This document shows, piece by piece, positions 3,531 through 35,813 of a DNA stretch of 64,000 bases (the stretch's first letter is position 1; every line of letters starts with the position of its first letter). The position numbers were made by a program, and so were the translations under genes. The notes beneath the pieces were generated by a model. It was not told the DNA's origin, did no database searches, and saw only the letters and a list, made by a program, of their open reading frames with translations. The stretch comes from a virus: IMG/VR virus record IMGVR_UViG_3300045988_061855; one strand, written 5' to 3'.

Positions 3531-3560
3531 CGATATACAATCCCTTTAATGACTGAAAGT
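3531..3560 (+). promoter_or_regulatory. conserved early-region element, copy E
   Basis: cgatatacaatccctttaatgactgaaagt. Confidence 0.45.
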
Positions 3561-3787: not shown

Positions 3788-3815
3788 GCGTAAAAAACAA
3801 TTTATCTAATGAGAG
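3788..3815 (+). promoter_or_regulatory. conserved early-region element, copy F, abutting the tRNA-like gene
   Basis: gcgtaaaaaacaatttatctaatgagag. The tRNA acceptor stem starts at 3815. Confidence 0.5.
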
Positions 3816-3885
3816 AATAGGTAGCTCAGGTGGTAGAGCAGCAGATTTATTCTGCGGGCCATGGGTTCGAGTCCCATTCTATTCT
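3815..3885 (+). tRNA. tRNA-like gene with an aberrant anticodon arm (anticodon UUA if the loop is 7 nt)
   Basis: The acceptor stem GAATAGG/TCTATTC has 7 bp with one G-U. The D arm is GCTC-AGGTGGTA-GAGC and the T arm is ATGGG-TTCGAGT-CCCAT. The anticodon region GCAGATTTATTCTGC folds either as 5 bp plus a 5-nt loop or as 4 bp plus the loop ATTTATT. The gene is 71 nt with no encoded CCA. Confidence 0.6.
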
Positions 3886-18097: not shown

Positions 18098-18135
18098 TCG
18101 TGTAATTTACAAGTACTATTATGAAAGGAGTGTGA
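18098..18135 (+). promoter_or_regulatory. conserved early-region element, copy P
   Basis: tcgtgtaatttacaagtactattatgaaaggagtgtga. Confidence 0.5.
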
Positions 18136-18257: not shown

Positions 18258-18286
18258 AGAGTCCTAACAAGGGCTCTTTCTTTTTT
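18258..18286 (+). terminator. rho-independent terminator (GAGTCCT-aaca-AGGGCTC family)
   Basis: Same hairpin plus TTTCTTTTTTT. Confidence 0.7.
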
Positions 18287-18312
18287 TACACATTTTAAGG
18301 AGGATTTACATT

Positions 18313-20541: not shown

Positions 20542-20856
20542 ATGTTAGATAATGCTAAGGACCAATGTACAGTCAAGGATCTAAAAGAACTATTGAATGA
20601 ATTATCGAATAATGGATATGATAATATGCCGATATTTTTAGGCAATAAAACACCATTATTAAATGATGCTATTTGTATAAGCTATGCATTTGATGTGGGG
20701 GTATATTTTAAGAATACTCATTATGATAAAGAGCTTGTTAATGCTGCTGACCAGTTAAAAAATGAAATTGATGTGGCGGTTAAAAAATATATAGCACATT
20801 GTTATTATGCTGGGCGTGATATTAAATCAGACGAGGAGGTTTTGCATCATGAGTAA
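20542..20856 (+). CDS. hypothetical protein
   Basis: 104 aa with a TAGGAGG RBS. Confidence 0.75.
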   Translation: MLDNAKDQCTVKDLKELLNELSNNGYDNMPIFLGNKTPLLNDAICISYAFDVGVYFKNTHYDKELVNAADQLKNEIDVAVKKYIAHCYYAGRDIKSDEEVLHHE

Positions 20857-24995: not shown

Positions 24996-25387
24996 TTAAA
25001 TTAGAAGGTAGAGTTCTATTATTTGATGTGATCAATCAACTCTCTAATAAAATATCTAAAGATTGTAAACTTACTATGCCCGAAAAAGTTCCTTTGACTT
25101 GGAATTTTGAGCATGATAAACCTATTGGATTTGCTACGCCAATCAGAGATAATAAGGGCATTTATGCCACAGCAGAAACATTTTCCAATGAATATATTGG
25201 CATCGAAGATATCCGGGATATTCTTACAGATGGAAAGATTGGTGTTGGTGGATACTATAGTATAAATAAAAGGCACAACGAAGGAGAACTAGACATCATT
25301 GATGAAGCAACATTACTAGATATTGGACTAACTTTGGCGCCGGTTCGTGAAGAATATTATTTTAAAATTATGGAGGAAAAGAAATGA
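24992..25387 (+). CDS. hypothetical protein whose N-terminal block resembles a prohead-protease (S78/U35) N-terminus
   Basis: 131 aa. VPLTWNFEHDKPIGFATPIRDNKGIYATAE compares with VPLVWNHEHNDPNAVLGHAVLENRKDGVYAYG in the capsid-protease fusion at 41855. Confidence 0.6.
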   Translation: MIKLEGRVLLFDVINQLSNKISKDCKLTMPEKVPLTWNFEHDKPIGFATPIRDNKGIYATAETFSNEYIGIEDIRDILTDGKIGVGGYYSINKRHNEGELDIIDEATLLDIGLTLAPVREEYYFKIMEEKK

Positions 25388-25639
25388 TTAAATTAGAGCA
25401 TGTAGTTCTGGCAAGTCCGGAGCAGATGGAGTTTATTATTGAGGGTATGCGAAACCCTATGAATTCATGGGAGAAAGGAGACAGTAAACTGGCGACCGCT
25501 GGATATGACGTTGTCGGGTTCGATCTTGGAGACGCTGATCTCGCTCTGATGCGGCGACTCTCCAAAGCAGGTACTGACCATAGAAAATTCATGCGAATGA
25601 TTCCGGTGTATGTGAGAATCACTGCGCCGTTGTATTGGT
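25384..25639 (+). CDS. ThyX-like (flavin-dependent thymidylate-synthase-like) phage protein, exon 1
   Basis: Ends ...HRKFMRMIPVYVRITAPLYW plus the first base of the next Trp codon. The apparent TAG at 25639 is created by the intron. Confidence 0.65.
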
Positions 25640-25686
25640 AGTTCTTTCTGCCAATGAAACACTTTGCCTAGTTATTGCTAGGGGTC

Positions 25687-25721
25687 ACGCTAAATTTACA
25701 TCTCCTATAATGAAAGGAGTG
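25687..25721 (+). promoter_or_regulatory. conserved early-region element, copy K (inside the intron)
   Basis: acgctaaatttacatctcctataatgaaaggagtg. Confidence 0.45.
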
Positions 25722-25727
25722 ATTTAT

Positions 25728-25922
25728 ATGATAGCTAGAATGGCATTAACAATCAACATTAATTCCAAAAAAGGCAAATATTTTGTGAAGCAGATGTTAC
25801 CTAAATGTAAACATATGGTAACTATCAGATCAAGCAAAGTCTTAGATGGATATACTGATTATATAATGGACATTGAAGATTATTATATAGCACAAGAATT
25901 ATTAGAAAAGATTGAGTCCTAA
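25728..25922 (+). CDS. intron-borne hypothetical protein (64 aa)
   Basis: ATG at 25728 follows AAAGGAGTG. No homing-endonuclease motifs are visible. Confidence 0.55.
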   Translation: MIARMALTININSKKGKYFVKQMLPKCKHMVTIRSSKVLDGYTDYIMDIEDYYIAQELLEKIES

Positions 25923-25940
25923 CATGGGCTCTTTCTTTTT
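25914..25940 (+). terminator. rho-independent terminator (GAGTCCT-aaca-TGGGCTC)
   Basis: The hairpin overlaps the stop codon of 25728..25922. Confidence 0.6.
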
Positions 25941-26296
25941 ATATTTTAGCGTGGCTAACGGGGAACCACCCATTGGAATCCCGTGGGAAACATTTCAAAG
26001 ATATATTTTCGCGAAAATTACATGGTGTATTATGAGAGAATAAGGCCCGTGGAATTAAAAATATTAACCACAATTCTAGGGTGACTAGTAACGGTGGAGA
26101 TTCTATTAGAATCGTAGTTAGGCAAGATCCTTATTCTTTTTTGTTTTTATTTCTTTTATATTTTTGAAATGAACCTGTAGAGGCTATCCCCTATGCCTTC
26201 CGGGCGGGGGAGTAGGGCTACTATTGATACGTAGCTGGGTTTTAGGAAACGAAGCCCATGAAAACCGAAATGGTGTCCTATTGTTTTTTGTGTGTT

Positions 26297-26333
26297 AGCG
26301 AGATTTACAACTCCTTTTATGAAAGGATGGTGA
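26297..26333 (+). promoter_or_regulatory. conserved early-region element, copy L (inside the intron)
   Basis: agcgagatttacaactccttttatgaaaggatggtga. Confidence 0.45.
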
Positions 26334-26338
26334 TATTT

Positions 26339-26563
26339 ATGTTTAATTTTTTTAAGAAAAAAGTCAGAGAAGAGGACCCAATATTGAAGGAGATAAACCA
26401 ACAAACTGAAGAATTAAAAGCTATAACCGATTCTATGCGTAGAGATAACGAATCATTAGAAGCTGATATTCAAATTGCGGAAAAATTATTACTCAATAGG
26501 GGATACTCACAAGAGGATTTGGAAAAATTAAAAATAAAATCGAAACTCAAAATAGTTAAGTAA
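26339..26563 (+). CDS. intron-borne coiled-coil protein (74 aa)
   Basis: ATG at 26339: MFNFFKKKVREEDPILKEINQQTEELKAITDSMRRDNESLEADIQ.... Confidence 0.55.
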   Translation: MFNFFKKKVREEDPILKEINQQTEELKAITDSMRRDNESLEADIQIAEKLLLNRGYSQEDLEKLKIKSKLKIVK

Positions 26564-26573
26564 AAATTAGGGG

Positions 26574-26608
26574 AAGACTCAGAGTAAAATCTTGGTCTTT
26601 TCTCTTTT
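26574..26608 (+). terminator. hairpin plus T-rich run
   Basis: AAGACTCAG-N8-CTTGGTCTT. Confidence 0.4.
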
Positions 26609-26653
26609 GTATTTAACACACAAAAAACAATAGTAAAAGATAGTCCATTAATG

Positions 26654-27135
26654 GGAAAGAATTTGATACTTATAAAGTTGGTACTGTTGCGAACTCTTGC
26701 AGTACAATGCACAAGATTGCTGAGAAAGAGTTTACACTGGAGGATTTCTCTACGGAGCATCTGATGACCTGGAATGACGATTTCACAGCGGATTGCGTTA
26801 TTGATTATGGACATTCTCCTGACGGTTATCCTTCTGGTAAAGTTCCCATGGATATTTTAGGCAACACTATTAAGATGCTAAATGAAGCTAGGGATAAATA
26901 TTTAAACTTTTCGTCTTTAAATGTTAATACTGAAAATGCTAAAAAAGATATTTGGTGGCAGATGATCCAGCTTCTTCCGAGCAGCTATAACCAGACACGC
27001 AACGTTATGATGAATTATGAGGTGCTGACAAACATATATAAGTCTCGCAAAGACCACAAGCTGGACGAATGGAGAGAGTTCTGTAAGTGGATTGAAACTT
27101 TACCTTATAGTGAATTAATTATCGGAGGTGAATAA
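26654..27135 (+). CDS. ThyX-like phage protein, exon 2
   Basis: The frame is open from 26644. (W)KEFDTYKVGTVANSCSTMHKIAEKEF...RKDHKLDEWREFCKWIETLPYSELI. Exons 1 and 2 together are 738 nt, giving 245 aa. Confidence 0.65.
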
Positions 27136-30434: not shown

Positions 30435-30704
30435 ATGACGGATATTGAAAAGCAAATAGAGGCTATGGGATACGAAGTTCGTGTTAGTGACATGTCTAAT
30501 GAGTATATTGTTTATGAGAATAAAAAAAGTGATCAAGAAGTAACCTTAGAATGGGATTACGAAGATCAGTATTGTATGATACATTCGCAAACAATATCAA
30601 GAGAAAAAGATTGGATAGGACAGACACATCAAATGCCTATGCCATTAACTATTTGTGAAGCTGAAATATTTATGGCTAGACTTAAAGAATTACGAGAGTC
30701 CTAA
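30435..30704 (+). CDS. hypothetical protein (89 aa)
   Basis: ATG at 30435. The C-terminal ...RES* is encoded by the terminator hairpin. Confidence 0.65.
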   Translation: MTDIEKQIEAMGYEVRVSDMSNEYIVYENKKSDQEVTLEWDYEDQYCMIHSQTISREKDWIGQTHQMPMPLTICEAEIFMARLKELRES

Positions 30705-30723
30705 CAAGGGCTCTTTCTTTTTT
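30696..30723 (+). terminator. rho-independent terminator (GAGTCCT-aaca-AGGGCTC family)
   Basis: Overlaps the stop codon; followed by TTTCTTTTTT. Confidence 0.7.
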
Positions 30724-30739
30724 ATATTTAGGAGGGTTT

Positions 30740-32921: not shown

Positions 32922-35813
32922 ATGAATTCAGTAGCAGAAGAGATTCTTTCCTATATTGGAAGTCAAGCATTCAGCGAAGAAGAATTTCTTGCTCATTATG
33001 GAATGCCTCGTCGAAGTGGAAGATATCCATGGGGCTCGGGAGAGGAGCCATTTCAACATAGTGGAGATTTCTTATCAAGAGTTGAAGAGATGAGAAAATC
33101 TAAGTTTACTTATACTGATGAAGATGGCGTAAAATGGACTGGTGACAATGCAATAGCTAAATCTCTTGGGTACACTTCAAGTGATTTTAGAACTGTATGT
33201 GCCATCGCTAATAATGAGCGTAGGGCTGTAAAAGTTGCCGCCGCTAAAGCATTAAAAGAAAAAGGATTTAATGCAACTGAAATTGGTAGGCAGATGGGAA
33301 TTAACGAATCGTCTGTTAGGTCTTTACTCGATGAAAAAGCAGAAGAGAGAATGAACCAGGCTAGAGCAACTGCTGATTTTTTAAAGGAACAAGTTGATAA
33401 AAAGAAAATGATAGATGTTGGTTCAAAAGCCAACCTTGAATTAAATGTTTCTAAAGAGAAAATGGATCAGGCTCTTTATATGTTGCAGGCAGAAGGTGGT
33501 TATGAAATCTGGGGAAATAGATTTCCACAGGCAACTAATAAAGGACAGTTGACAACTCAGAAGGTTCTGTGTGTTCCTGGAACACCACACAGTGCCATAT
33601 ATGATTTTGGTAAGGTTCAGACTATTGGCGATTATATTACTAGAGACGATGGAAAAACATTTGAAAAGAAGTTTCATTATCCTGAGAGTTTGAACTCTAA
33701 GCGTCTTGAAATCTGTTATGCAGAAGATGGGGGTATAAAGAAAGATGGTCTTATTGAACTTAGAAGGAATGTCCCAGATCTTTCATTAGGAGAGTCTCGA
33801 TATTCTCAGGTTCGTATTATGGTGGATGGTAAGAAATACATAAAAGGAATGGCAGTATATGCTGATGATTTACCAGAAGGCATAGACGTTAGATTTAACA
33901 CCAATAAATCAAATAAATTATCTAAGCTGGAATGTCTCAAGGATGTTAAGAGCGACCCAGACAATCCTTTTGGAGCCCTCATCAAAGAAGAAGGCGGACA
34001 GTATTGGTATACAGATTCAAAGGGTAAAAAGAAGCTTGGATTAATTAATAAAACAAGAGAAGAAGGAGAATGGGAAGAATGGAAAGATTCTTTACCATCT
34101 CAGTTCTTGTCAAAACAGAATAAGGTATTAGCTGAGAAACAGCTAGGAATTGCCAAGGCAGATAAGCAGTCTGAGTTTGATGACATAATGGCATTGAACA
34201 ATCCTACTATTAAAAAATATTATCTTGATAAATTTGCATCATCATGCGACTCAGCAGCAGTGCATTTACAGGCAGCTGCGTTGCCAGGTCAGAAGTATCA
34301 CGTAATATTACCATTAACTACAATGAGTGATAGAGAAGCTTATGCTCCTGATTATGCTGATGGAACTAAACTTGCATTGGTAAGATTCCCACATGGTGGA
34401 ACATTTGAAATACCTATAGTTACTGTTAATAATAGAAATAAAGAAGCTATTAAGATGATTGGTAAGTCTTCAACAGATGCCATAGGTATTAACGCTAATG
34501 TCGCAGGAAGATTATCGGGTGCAGATTTTGATGGCGATACTGTTATGTGTATTCCAACCCATGATAGGGGCGGAAAAGTAAAAATTACATCTACTCCAGA
34601 ATTAAAAGACTTAGAGGGATTTGATCCTAAGCTTAATTATGGTGGCGAATGTAGAAAAGATAGTGATGGTAAAGAACATTATTATCGTAATGGTAGAGAG
34701 TATCGCCTGATGACAAAGACCGATACTGAGATGGGAAAAATTTCTAATCTTATTACTGATATGACCCTGATAGGTGCAACTGAAGATGAGCTTGCAAGAG
34801 CAGTAAAACATTCAATGGTTGTTATCGATGCAGAGAAACATCATCTGGATTATAAGCAGAGTGAGCTTGATAATAACATTGTTGCACTTAAGAAGAAGTA
34901 TCAGGGGAAAGCTCAAGGCGGAGCAGCTACAATTATCTCACAATCAAAAGGTGAGTATGATGTAGATAAAAGACAGGGTACTCCTCGTACTAATCTTAAG
35001 CGTAACGAGTATAAGAATAATCCAGAAAAGGGAGACATTTGGTATGACCCAAGTCGACCTGAAGGTGCCCTTCTCTACAAGAAAGCTGACGATGCTGACT
35101 ATCAGATAACCAAGGTTGATAAGAGAACTGGTGAGGTAACCACTATTACTAAAACCCGCCAACAGAAGAGTACTAAGATGGCCGAGACAGATGATGCCAA
35201 TACACTGGTATCTACTCATCGCCATCCTATGGAATTAGTGTATGCTGATTATGCTAATGCAATGAAAGATATGGCTAACAAGGCTAGAATTGCTATAGCA
35301 GATGCAGGTAAGGTTGCATACAGTAGGGAGGCTAAGAGTAAGTATGAGGTGGAGGTAAAATCTCTTTTAGAAAAACTTAATAATGCTGAAAAGAATGCCG
35401 TTAGAGAGAGAGCCGCACAGAGAATTGCTAATGCCAACATAAATGAGAAATTAGAAGCTAATCCTGACATGAAAGCTAAAGATAAAAAGAAAGTTTCTCA
35501 GCAGGCTTTAAGTAAGGCAAGACTTGAAGTTGGTTCTGTTAAGAGACGAGATAGAAACATAGTAATCACTGATAATGAATGGGAAGCTATTCAGGCAGGT
35601 GCTGTGAGTGAAACGATTCTTAAACGAATACTGAATAATTCAGACCCAGATTCGTTGAGAGCAAAGGCAATGCCTAAAGAATCATCAGCATTATCAGATG
35701 CTAAGATAGCCAGAATTAAAGCTATGTCTGCTTCATACACAATTGCACAGATAGCTGATAAACTTGGCTATTCAACATCAACAATTTCTAAAGCTTTGAA
35801 AGGAGGAAATTAA
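32922..35813 (+). CDS. single-subunit two-barrel (double-psi beta-barrel) RNA polymerase, YonO/beta-prime-like
   Basis: LVRFPHGG at aa 486-493 and SGADFDGDTVMCIP at aa 532-545 (nt 34521..34538 encode ADFDGD) match the beta-prime pattern RxPxxH...NADFDGDQMAVH. GKKYIKGMAVYADDLPEG at aa 303-320 resembles the beta-subunit motif GDKxxxRHGNKGV...EDMP. HTH-like segments occur at aa ~116-136 and ~936-958. The N-terminal HYGMPRRSGRYPWGSGE is a WG motif. Confidence 0.75.
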   Translation: MNSVAEEILSYIGSQAFSEEEFLAHYGMPRRSGRYPWGSGEEPFQHSGDFLSRVEEMRKSKFTYTDEDGVKWTGDNAIAKSLGYTSSDFRTVCAIANNERRAVKVAAAKALKEKGFNATEIGRQMGINESSVRSLLDEKAEERMNQARATADFLKEQVDKKKMIDVGSKANLELNVSKEKMDQALYMLQAEGGYEIWGNRFPQATNKGQLTTQKVLCVPGTPHSAIYDFGKVQTIGDYITRDDGKTFEKKFHYPESLNSKRLEICYAEDGGIKKDGLIELRRNVPDLSLGESRYSQVRIMVDGKKYIKGMAVYADDLPEGIDVRFNTNKSNKLSKLECLKDVKSDPDNPFGALIKEEGGQYWYTDSKGKKKLGLINKTREEGEWEEWKDSLPSQFLSKQNKVLAEKQLGIAKADKQSEFDDIMALNNPTIKKYYLDKFASSCDSAAVHLQAAALPGQKYHVILPLTTMSDREAYAPDYADGTKLALVRFPHGGTFEIPIVTVNNRNKEAIKMIGKSSTDAIGINANVAGRLSGADFDGDTVMCIPTHDRGGKVKITSTPELKDLEGFDPKLNYGGECRKDSDGKEHYYRNGREYRLMTKTDTEMGKISNLITDMTLIGATEDELARAVKHSMVVIDAEKHHLDYKQSELDNNIVALKKKYQGKAQGGAATIISQSKGEYDVDKRQGTPRTNLKRNEYKNNPEKGDIWYDPSRPEGALLYKKADDADYQITKVDKRTGEVTTITKTRQQKSTKMAETDDANTLVSTHRHPMELVYADYANAMKDMANKARIAIADAGKVAYSREAKSKYEVEVKSLLEKLNNAEKNAVRERAAQRIANANINEKLEANPDMKAKDKKKVSQQALSKARLEVGSVKRRDRNIVITDNEWEAIQAGAVSETILKRILNNSDPDSLRAKAMPKESSALSDAKIARIKAMSASYTIAQIADKLGYSTSTISKALKGGN

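Follow-up and report, generated by a model that had tools for sequence, protein, structure and literature searches.

Group I introns in the nucleotide-metabolism genes of phages are a classical finding. The td intron of phage T4, a group I intron of class IA2, lies in a thymidylate synthase gene of the thyA type and carries I-TevI. In the DNA polymerase intron of Bacillus phage SPO1 (I-HmuI), the endonuclease open reading frame (ORF) is looped out from helix P8. Within the gene that encodes the DNA polymerase of Enterococcus phage EF1, a comparable segment is not annotated as an intron in the record, and only the neighbouring HNH gene is noted as 'Phage intron'. Group I introns are reported to be very common in gut phages (PMC12880540), and the T4-type phages also contain promoter-early stem-loop (PeSL) modules, which bracket small ORFs and bring about modular shuffling (PMC2839356, PMC4122927). 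Here, we describe an insert at positions 25640-26653 of the virus record IMGVR_UViG_3300045988_061855, whose whole 64,000-nt stretch is called the window below. The carrier was an uncultured gut phage, probably infecting Firmicutes, and the interrupted gene encodes a protein with a predicted ThyX-like fold. Very probably, the insert is a group I intron that splices itself, belongs to the IA type and is related to T4 td. The original prediction, made from the sequence alone, had already placed a group I intron at these positions, and computation now backs it with the splice junction, 28 copies at the same site, covariation, the match of a covariance model to td, sequence blocks shared with td and the endonucleases of sister copies.

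Splice junction and host gene

The gene was divided as follows:

25384..25639, + strand: exon 1 of the ThyX-fold gene, from an ATG start, 85 codons and the first base of W86
25640-26653: intron, 1,014 nt
26654..27135, + strand: exon 2, GG of W86, then KEFDTYK... up to the stop codon

As read in the window sequence, exon 1 ended with ...GCG CCG TTG TAT TGG T, and an in-frame stop codon TAG (25639-25641) straddled the 5′ splice site. Exon 2 began at 26654 with GG AAA GAA TTT GAT, where the frame (W)KEFDTYKVGTVANSCSTMHKI opened and ran to 27135. The original prediction had described an N-terminal ORF ending in ITAPLYW at a TAG and a frame resuming about 1 kb downstream, in agreement with the sequence and the ORF list. 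Its ligated ORF of 738 nt was also recovered (256 + 482 nt) and coded for 245 aa. Residues 1-243 of the fused protein matched positions 7-216 of the 218 positions of PHROG 6721 (phrog_6721) in one stretch, with an E-value of 6.5e-81.

A search of 5.8 billion proteins with the fused protein gave at least 8,000 homologs. None was interrupted among the matches listed, and the best of these was 84% identical over 100% of the length (86% in a 17-sequence alignment). The junction segment APLYWWKEFDTYK was invariant or nearly so in the uninterrupted homologs, YVRITAPLYWWKEFDTYKVGT crossed the junction ungapped in the 17-sequence alignment with most residues invariant, and the junction in the homologs read APLYW|WKEFDTYK at the protein level. 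The two exon ends were also joined in DNA: TATATTGGT|GGAAAGAGTTTG was continuous in the intronless allele L072 (loci are cited here by L numbers), and the contig coding for homolog P0002 contained the exon 1 end and the exon 2 start contiguously in ...CCTCTATATTGGTGGAAAGAGTTTGATAC.... The intronless target site had the sequence TATATTGGTGGAAAGAGTTTG. Because the protein requires W-W-K, 25639|26654 is the sole junction that fits. Alignment with uninterrupted homologs, a check proposed with the original prediction, thus placed the junction exactly, in protein and in DNA.

The host protein was modelled through P0002, which was 84% identical to the window protein in the search and 85% in the alignment. 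With an input of 50 diverse representatives from a profile search of the full library, AlphaFold2 gave a predicted local distance difference test (pLDDT) score of 91.8 and a predicted template modelling (pTM) score of 0.86; a first run on a shallow alignment of 24 close homologs had been unusable (pLDDT 49). The top 50 PDB matches of the model in Foldseek were all ThyX (H. pylori, T. maritima), with E-values from 2.5e-8, probability 1.00, template modelling scores of 0.46-0.67 and 11-15% identity. Pfam Thy1 (PF02511) gave sub-threshold matches in 4 of the 50 diverse members (best E 0.001) and was the only Pfam family matched by more than one of them. The fused window protein itself had no Pfam match, two PDB profile searches gave chance matches only, and the hhalign profile comparison with T. 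maritima ThyX was not significant (probability 0.7%). Sequence methods failed for the window protein, and the fold comparison alone was decisive for ThyX. The modelled host protein is ThyX-like at the fold level; at that level the 'ThyX-like' of the original prediction was right, but neither the RHR motif nor a Pfam Thy1 match was found in the window protein.

The family shared the local pattern H..(F/Y)(V/I).(I/V).AP(L/I)(Y/F) with ThyX. However, the ThyX signature RHRxxS was absent, and DTYK stood at the RHR position in an alignment made by eye around AP(L/I)(Y/F) (consensus WWKEFDTYKVGT). Because RHR is replaced by DTYK, thymidylate synthase activity is not to be assumed. By the same alignment, the intron lay immediately before the signature position. 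The host family was a very large, uncharacterised one among phage proteins and comprised 4,111 clusters at 50% identity (E up to 0.001; proteins P0001-P0270), and its family-wide invariant residues (P0002 numbering) included R23, D53, K69, R72, A82-P83, W87, W187, Q200 and Y208. Isolated phages of Clostridium, Enterocloster, Clostridioides and Fusobacterium also encoded homologs, each annotated as hypothetical. The intron occupied the most conserved segment of the family, as expected of a homing-endonuclease site, and its position marks this segment as functionally critical.

Ribozyme core, same-site copies and relatives

The insert and the flanking exon bases could be assigned to the following elements, in the order of the sequence:

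25634-39 with 25650-55, + strand: P1, exon AUUGGU with internal guide GCCAAU; loop 25640-49; U25639-G25650 wobble at the 5′ splice site
25642-25649, + strand: P10 guide UUCUUUCU; partner GGAAAGAA, the first 8 nt of exon 2 (26654-26661); 8 bp including one G-U
25659-25663, + strand: P3 5′ strand ACACU; partner GGUGU 26272-26276; pseudoknot with P7
25667-25682, + strand: P2 hairpin CCUAG-UUAUUG-CUAGG; compensatory changes in 4 of 5 pairs
25684-94 with 25945-55, + strand: P2.1, an 11-bp stem directly 5′ of J3/4; ORF1 cassette in its loop, 25695-25944
25956-58, + strand: J3/4 (UAA)
25959-63 with 25979-83, + strand: P4
25966-68 with 25974-76, + strand: P5
25985-87 with 26174-76, + strand: P6
25991-26005 with 26157-71, + strand: P6a, enclosing a 151-nt insert (26006-26156)
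26182-26187, + strand: P7 5′ strand GGCUAU; partner AUAGUC 26640-26645
26188-26210, + strand: P7.1
26215-26266, + strand: P7.2 domain; base GG/CC 26215-16 with 26265-66; hairpin GCUAC/GUAGC 26217-35
26236-58, + strand: P7.2a, an extra hairpin
26272-26276, + strand: P3 3′ strand GGUGU, after a conserved GAAAU
26278-97 with 26614-33, + strand: P8, a perfect 20-bp stem; ORF2 cassette in its loop, 26298-26613
26634-39, + strand: J8/7 (UAAAAG)
26640-45, + strand: P7 3′ strand AUAGUC
26646-53, + strand: 7-nt tail and terminal G26653, no P9 hairpin

P3 crossed P7, which is the pseudoknot of group I introns. When the first 40 nt of the intron were shuffled 200,000 times, P1 together with the adjacent 8-bp P10 arose in 0.032% (3.2e-4) of the shuffles and the 6-bp P1 alone in 21%; therefore, P1 alone is weak evidence and P1 with P10 is not. 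Both pairings had been proposed in the original prediction, including the U-G wobble, and were found to be exact in sequence and identical with the assignments favoured by covariation. The P2-like hairpin that it had noticed was the covariation-backed P2, and the terminal G26653 that it had named was present. Its GC-rich structured block at 25940-26290 was real, but it was composite: it consisted of the P2.1 3′ strand and P4-P6 (25945-26005), the P6a insert (26006-26156), and P6′-P7-P7.1-P7.2-P3′ (26157-26276).

Scanning IMG/VR with the P7.2 motif returned 68 loci, and at 27 of them, as in the window, an intron was inserted at exactly the same site of the same gene. These 28 copies varied from 308 to 2,277 nt, and the two 308-nt copies (L027 and L055) had no ORF. 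The last intron nucleotide was G in 28 of 28 copies, despite the varying length and sequence of the tail. The alignment A6 contained 18 distinct cores with the three variable loops trimmed, and its structure, from P1 to P10, was written from the window sequence. Standard pairs accounted for 98.0% of the 1,512 cells, and both-side (compensatory) changes were present in 33 of the 84 pairs, values attained by 0 of 500 shuffles, although this control overstates the significance because the copies are inter-related. The slid control, in which the 3′ partners were moved by 1-3 columns, is free of that weakness; it gave 41-48% paired cells and 9-10 compensatory pairs.

Compensatory changes backed P2, P2.1, P3, P5, P6, P6a, P7, P7.1, P7.2a and P8. 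P1, P4 and P7.2 were invariant in the 18 aligned copies, P1 because it is constrained by the exon and P7.2 because it was the motif used for retrieval. P3 was 100% paired, with C-G replaced by U-A in seven sequences and A-U by G-C in one. P7 changed from U-A to C-G in L070 and read GGUCAU/AUGACC in L004 and L071, and four of the six outer pairs of P8 showed compensatory changes. In P10, 95% of the cells were paired, and exon changes were absorbed as U-G wobbles.

Relatives in other genes (EF1, L013, L015, L019, L034, L040 and L058) had the same helices with different sequences. Nine distinct P3 sequences were found across the family, all of them complementary, and the internal guide changed with the exon (GGGGU/GCCCU in EF1, GAGGU/GCCUU in L015, AGGGU/GCCCU in L058). 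By BLAST, two short blocks of the region were found to be conserved in unrelated phages, namely EF1, 14 records of Lak megaphages and one gut phage scaffold. In 14 genomes of Prevotella Lak phages (MK250015-MK250028), a 70-nt stretch of the P7.2/P7.2a region (26206-26275) had 80-85% identity, which suggests that the same intron family is present in Lak megaphages. L040 contained a family member (1429-1653) and, about 170 nt downstream, a different group I intron (1821-2041), which was above the Rfam threshold (72.3 bits). Regex scans gave no second related intron in the window.

The link to td was obtained with R1, a covariance model of the 3′ core built from the window intron family only (alignment A9), without td. 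Its sole match in the T4 locus was the td catalytic core (L002, 2163-2247; 28 bits), and this match covered P7, P7.1, AGUAGG, CGAAA, P3′, P8, J8/7 and P7′. R1 also matched the window at 20672-20797 (15.2 bits, E 0.3); this was taken as a chance match and lay inside an intact 104-aa ORF (20542-20856). Comparison by eye aligned four blocks:

P4/P5 region: window UAACGGGGAACC...AAUCCCGUG, T4 td UAAACGGGGAACC...AAUCCCGUG
Second block: window GGCUAUCCCC...GGGGAGUAGGG, T4 td GACUAUCCC...GGGGAGUAGGG
Third block: window CCGAAAU, T4 td CUCGAAAC
Fourth block: window AAAGAUAGUCC, T4 td GAGAUAUAGUC

The blocks held in common could be written as UAA-(A)CGGGGAACC...AAUCCCGUG, CUAUCCC...GGGGAGUAGGG, CGAAA(C/U) and, in J8/7, (A)GAUA(UA)GUC. 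P7 was GACUAU/AUAGUC in T4 td and GGCUAU/AUAGUC in the window. The IA-type feature, P7.1 and P7.2 between P7 and the P3 3′ strand, was present, and P7.1 and P7.2a covaried. The IA2-like features of T4 td, P9 with P9.1/P9.2 and a P3 5′ strand next to J3/4, were absent. At L035 and L038, which share the P7.2 motif, the P3′ sequence CGAAA(C/A)GAUAGAC was that of T4 td, and these loci may be intermediates between td and the window intron family; their 5′ halves were not located with the anchors used.

Besides the relatedness of the copies, several points weigh against a td-related group I intron. The E-value of the R1-td match, ~3e-4, is rough by about fivefold either way. With Rfam (RF00028), neither the gathering score nor a permissive limit of E up to 10 yielded a group I match in the window, and the 308-nt ORF-less copy L027 was likewise missed. 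Instead of adjoining J3/4, the P3 5′ strand (25659-63) came just behind the internal guide, upstream of both P2 and P2.1. There was no P9, and in the same-site copies the terminal G was separated from P7′ by only 6-8 nt.

The Rfam result was judged by a control. T4 td itself (L002) scored 42.5 bits, below the 50-bit gathering score, and the EF1 intron was undetected. For this reason the negative result is uninformative, and the Infernal/Rfam check that had been proposed with the original prediction does not bear on it either way. The relative at L040 gave a sub-threshold match to Rfam Intron_gpI (32.5 bits, E 1e-4).

In T4 td, UCUAUC forms the P3 5′ strand and stands directly 5′ of UAA; in the window, that position was taken by the P2.1 3′ strand. 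A P3 at the canonical position, in which the strand 5′ of UAA pairs with GGUGU, was rejected: every copy showed a central mismatch, compensatory changes were absent, and as high a score was reached by 478 of 500 shuffles. A P9 hairpin was present in the relatives in other genes. P10 was long, 8 bp in the window and, by reading, 10 bp in several copies. A limited literature check found no description of the arrangement with a displaced P3 and no P9, for which we make no claim of novelty, and nothing relevant on P3.1 or on thyX introns. If confirmed, this arrangement means that the periphery and the strand order can change while the P3/P7 pseudoknot stays.

Cargo in the three loops

Among the 28 copies, the three loops differed greatly in span: L2.1 spanned 14-872 nt, P6 63-1,006 nt and P8 14-1,333 nt. 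In cargo-free copies, the P2.1 hairpin spanned 14-21 nt and P8 14-19 nt. The window copy carried about 720 nt of unrelated cargo, with the following features inside and outside the intron:

25729-25922, + strand: ORF1, 64 aa, in L2.1; motif TTACATCTCCTATAATGA upstream at 25696-25713
26340-26563, + strand: ORF2, 74 aa, in the P8 loop; promoter-like motif TTACAACTCCTTTTATGA upstream at 26305-26322
26006-26156 (151 nt): P6a insert, composed of a degenerate leader of the cassettes (TTACATGGTGTATTATGA at 26018), ~110 unique nt and a U-rich tail
from 25696, 26018 and 26305, + strand: motif copies inside the intron
1797-1814, 2964-2981, 3535-3552 and 18107-18124, + strand: motif copies outside the intron
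2549-2579, 18259-18288, 30696-30727 and, in the intron, 25914-25947: trailer, a hairpin followed by CTCTTTCTTTTT(T)ATATTT

ORF1, ORF2 and the P6a insert each started with a copy of a 30-nt repeat. Its core motif, TTACA-N5-TWTWATGA, had seven occurrences in the window, all of them on the + strand, where 1.78 were expected, and each of the four copies outside the intron was located 10-25 nt upstream of a Shine-Dalgarno sequence and an ATG. A spacing of 5 nt is not that of a sigma-70 promoter, so the motif may be a phage-specific promoter. The cassettes ended in a hairpin and a U-rich trailer, which looks like a shared terminator module; at its sites outside the intron, this trailer had the sequence that closes the ORF1 cassette.

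The Shine-Dalgarno sequence of ORF1 was inside a hairpin (25702-19), and a terminator-like hairpin (25914-31) with a U-tract followed downstream. The minimum-energy folds did contain hairpins enclosing the ribosome-binding site (-6.5 and -6.6 kcal/mol), and these hairpins were unexceptional (z -1.1 and -0.6). They were rejected as an intron-specific device, as similar pairing existed at two motif sites outside the intron, and are kept solely as an analogy to T4 I-TevI (PMC2988022).

ORF1 and ORF2 had no significant Pfam match, weak PHROG matches of no known or related function, and no tblastn match in GenBank phages; the only Pfam match of ORF2 was a weak, unrelated one to DyP_N (E 0.067). No homing endonuclease was found among the ORFs of the window copy in Pfam or PHROG. 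The ORF1 cassette was also found in L023, L025, L006 and L039. The ORF2 cassette was in the P8 loop in the window and L039 and in the P6 loop in L046 (87% identity), and other cassettes likewise occupied different loops in different copies. The P6a insert had only a 36-nt leader conserved elsewhere. It was rejected for now as a structured small RNA, as it folded no better than shuffles (z -0.56). Given the leader alone, the ~110 nt of unique sequence and the lack of a folding signal, we read this insert as a decayed or non-coding cassette.

Endonucleases were found in sister copies: a GIY-YIG ORF in P6 of L011 (Pfam E 5.7e-13) and an ORF with NUMOD4, HNH_3 and I-HmuI-like domains in P8 of L012 and L059. 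Six sister copies encoded a zinc-ribbon protein of 199-293 aa in P6 with a weak DUF2726 match. Larger non-endonuclease cargo was present in P8 of L056 (996-1877) and L067 (573-1121; intron coordinates), and also in L021 and L022; these P8 proteins began with the DUF7211 motif MxExYLxHHGVKGQKWGVR, and one had a weak match to GNAT acetyltransferases. An 84-aa crAss001_48-like protein recurred in P6 of L022, L052 and L064.

Elsewhere in the window, a tRNA gene was detected at 3815-3885 on the + strand (Rfam tRNA, 56.2 bits). At ~34727-34855, 129 nt were 83% identical to Lactococcus phage 1706, which was the only sizeable match to an isolated phage in 25 kb of the window; the matched gene of phage 1706 was annotated as 'structural protein' in one record and as 'RNA-dependent RNA polymerase' in another.

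Alternatives, mechanism and comparison with known systems

With its endonuclease lost and its three loops filled with unrelated cargo, the window copy would fit a late stage of the homing cycle, and it might be a decayed intron that no longer splices, so that the ThyX-fold gene is a pseudogene or only its 85-aa N-terminal fragment is made. We regard this as improbable, because all 84 core pairs of the window copy are standard, its core is nearly identical to those in many independent contigs, both exons have intact reading frames with every family-invariant residue, and the cargo is confined to loops that are also variable in the sister copies.

Much less credible still is a split gene, whose halves would be translated separately, the second from the ATG at 26707 (142 aa), and assemble as subunits, the insert being a set of unrelated small genes. 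Although the ATG-initiated ORF 26707-27135 spans most of exon 2 and the insert does contain promoter-like motifs and terminator-like hairpins, this arrangement would discard the invariant segment WKEFDTYKVGTVANSCST. It would also leave unexplained the covarying RNA core, the P1, P10 and terminal G at codon-restoring positions, and the same-site copies of 308 nt that have no ORF.

Another kind of intervening element is the most implausible: the known gaps of translational bypassing are, to our knowledge, far shorter than 1,014 nt, the stop codons in all frames exclude an intein and the read-through of a reassigned TAG, which is known in some gut phages, and the core is homologous to T4 td by the R1 match. 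Phages have recently been reported to contain group II introns as well (PMC12350094), but no Rfam group II family matched in the window and no reverse transcriptase ORF was found.

For the self-splicing group I intron, we infer catalysis, expression and spread as follows. The precursor mRNA would fold into P1-P2-P2.1, P4-P6 and P3-P7-P8. An external guanosine bound in P7 would attack the phosphate after U25639, presented by P1 as a U-G wobble, and the terminal G26653 would next occupy the guanosine site in P7. With exon 2 aligned by the 8-bp P10, the free 3′-OH of exon 1 would attack after G26653 and join ...UAU UGG U to GG AAA GAA..., by which the 245-aa ThyX-fold protein would be restored. 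The in-frame UAG at the splice site would keep ribosomes out of the ribozyme. Confinement of the cargo to the peripheral loops L2.1, L6a and L8 would leave the core undisturbed, and the two small ORFs and the one ORF-less remnant would each stand behind a putative promoter also used outside the intron. As it has no homing endonuclease, the window copy would have been inherited passively or moved by the endonucleases of related phages.

We further speculated, with considerable doubt, that the family is a distinct IA structural variant, in which P3 has moved, P9 is absent and the long P10 compensates, and at the same time a cassette carrier with three sockets. If true, promoter-ORF-terminator modules would move among L2.1, L6 and L8 and among intron copies, and would be expressed from the spliced-out RNA. 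A self-splicing intron would then be a phenotypically silent landing pad for accessory genes, beyond its role as a vehicle for homing endonucleases. The three loops, with their variable cargo other than endonucleases, make the spread of small accessory genes tractable to study.

Gene callers will report two gene fragments and two orphan ORFs at such a locus. Because the standard Rfam model misses the whole family, even its 308-nt form, gut phage genomes probably contain more such introns than have been counted. A model seeded with the present alignment and structure could detect them.

The cassettes resembled the PeSL modules in that small function-unknown ORFs had a promoter-like leader, itself repeated, on one side and a stem-loop plus U-rich trailer on the other, that the same cassette occupied differing places in related genomes, and that leader and trailer also occurred at non-intron sites of the window. 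Unlike PeSL, the cassettes were inside ribozyme loops, the motif was unrelated to T4 early promoters, and its promoter role, like recombination of the cassettes, is putative.

Among the described introns, that of the SPO1 DNA polymerase gene has the P7 sequence GACUAU/AUAGUC, and an I-HmuI-like NUMOD domain is present in the HNH endonuclease that sister copy L012 carries in P8. However, by our own reading the P3 5′ strand of the SPO1 intron is directly before UAA, as in td. The SPO1 intron was rejected as the nearest relative, R1 giving no match.

The EF1 DNA polymerase intron was about 80% identical to the window in P7.1-P7.2-P7.2a. It had the same order of P1, P3 5′ strand, P2, P2.1, UAA and P4, with helices that were complementary and differed in sequence. 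It differed from the window intron in its host gene and splice site, and in having a P9 hairpin and an ORF in P6.

T4 td differs from the window intron in its ThyA host (here a predicted ThyX fold), in having P9, P9.1 and P9.2 where the window family has a tail of 6-8 nt, and in its single ORF, a GIY-YIG endonuclease in P6, against three cargo loops without an endonuclease in the window copy. In both introns, nevertheless, P7.1 and P7.2 separate P7 from P3′, the 5′ splice site has a stop codon, and an ORF in a peripheral loop has its own promoter, putative here, and a ribosome-binding site within a hairpin (PMC2988022).

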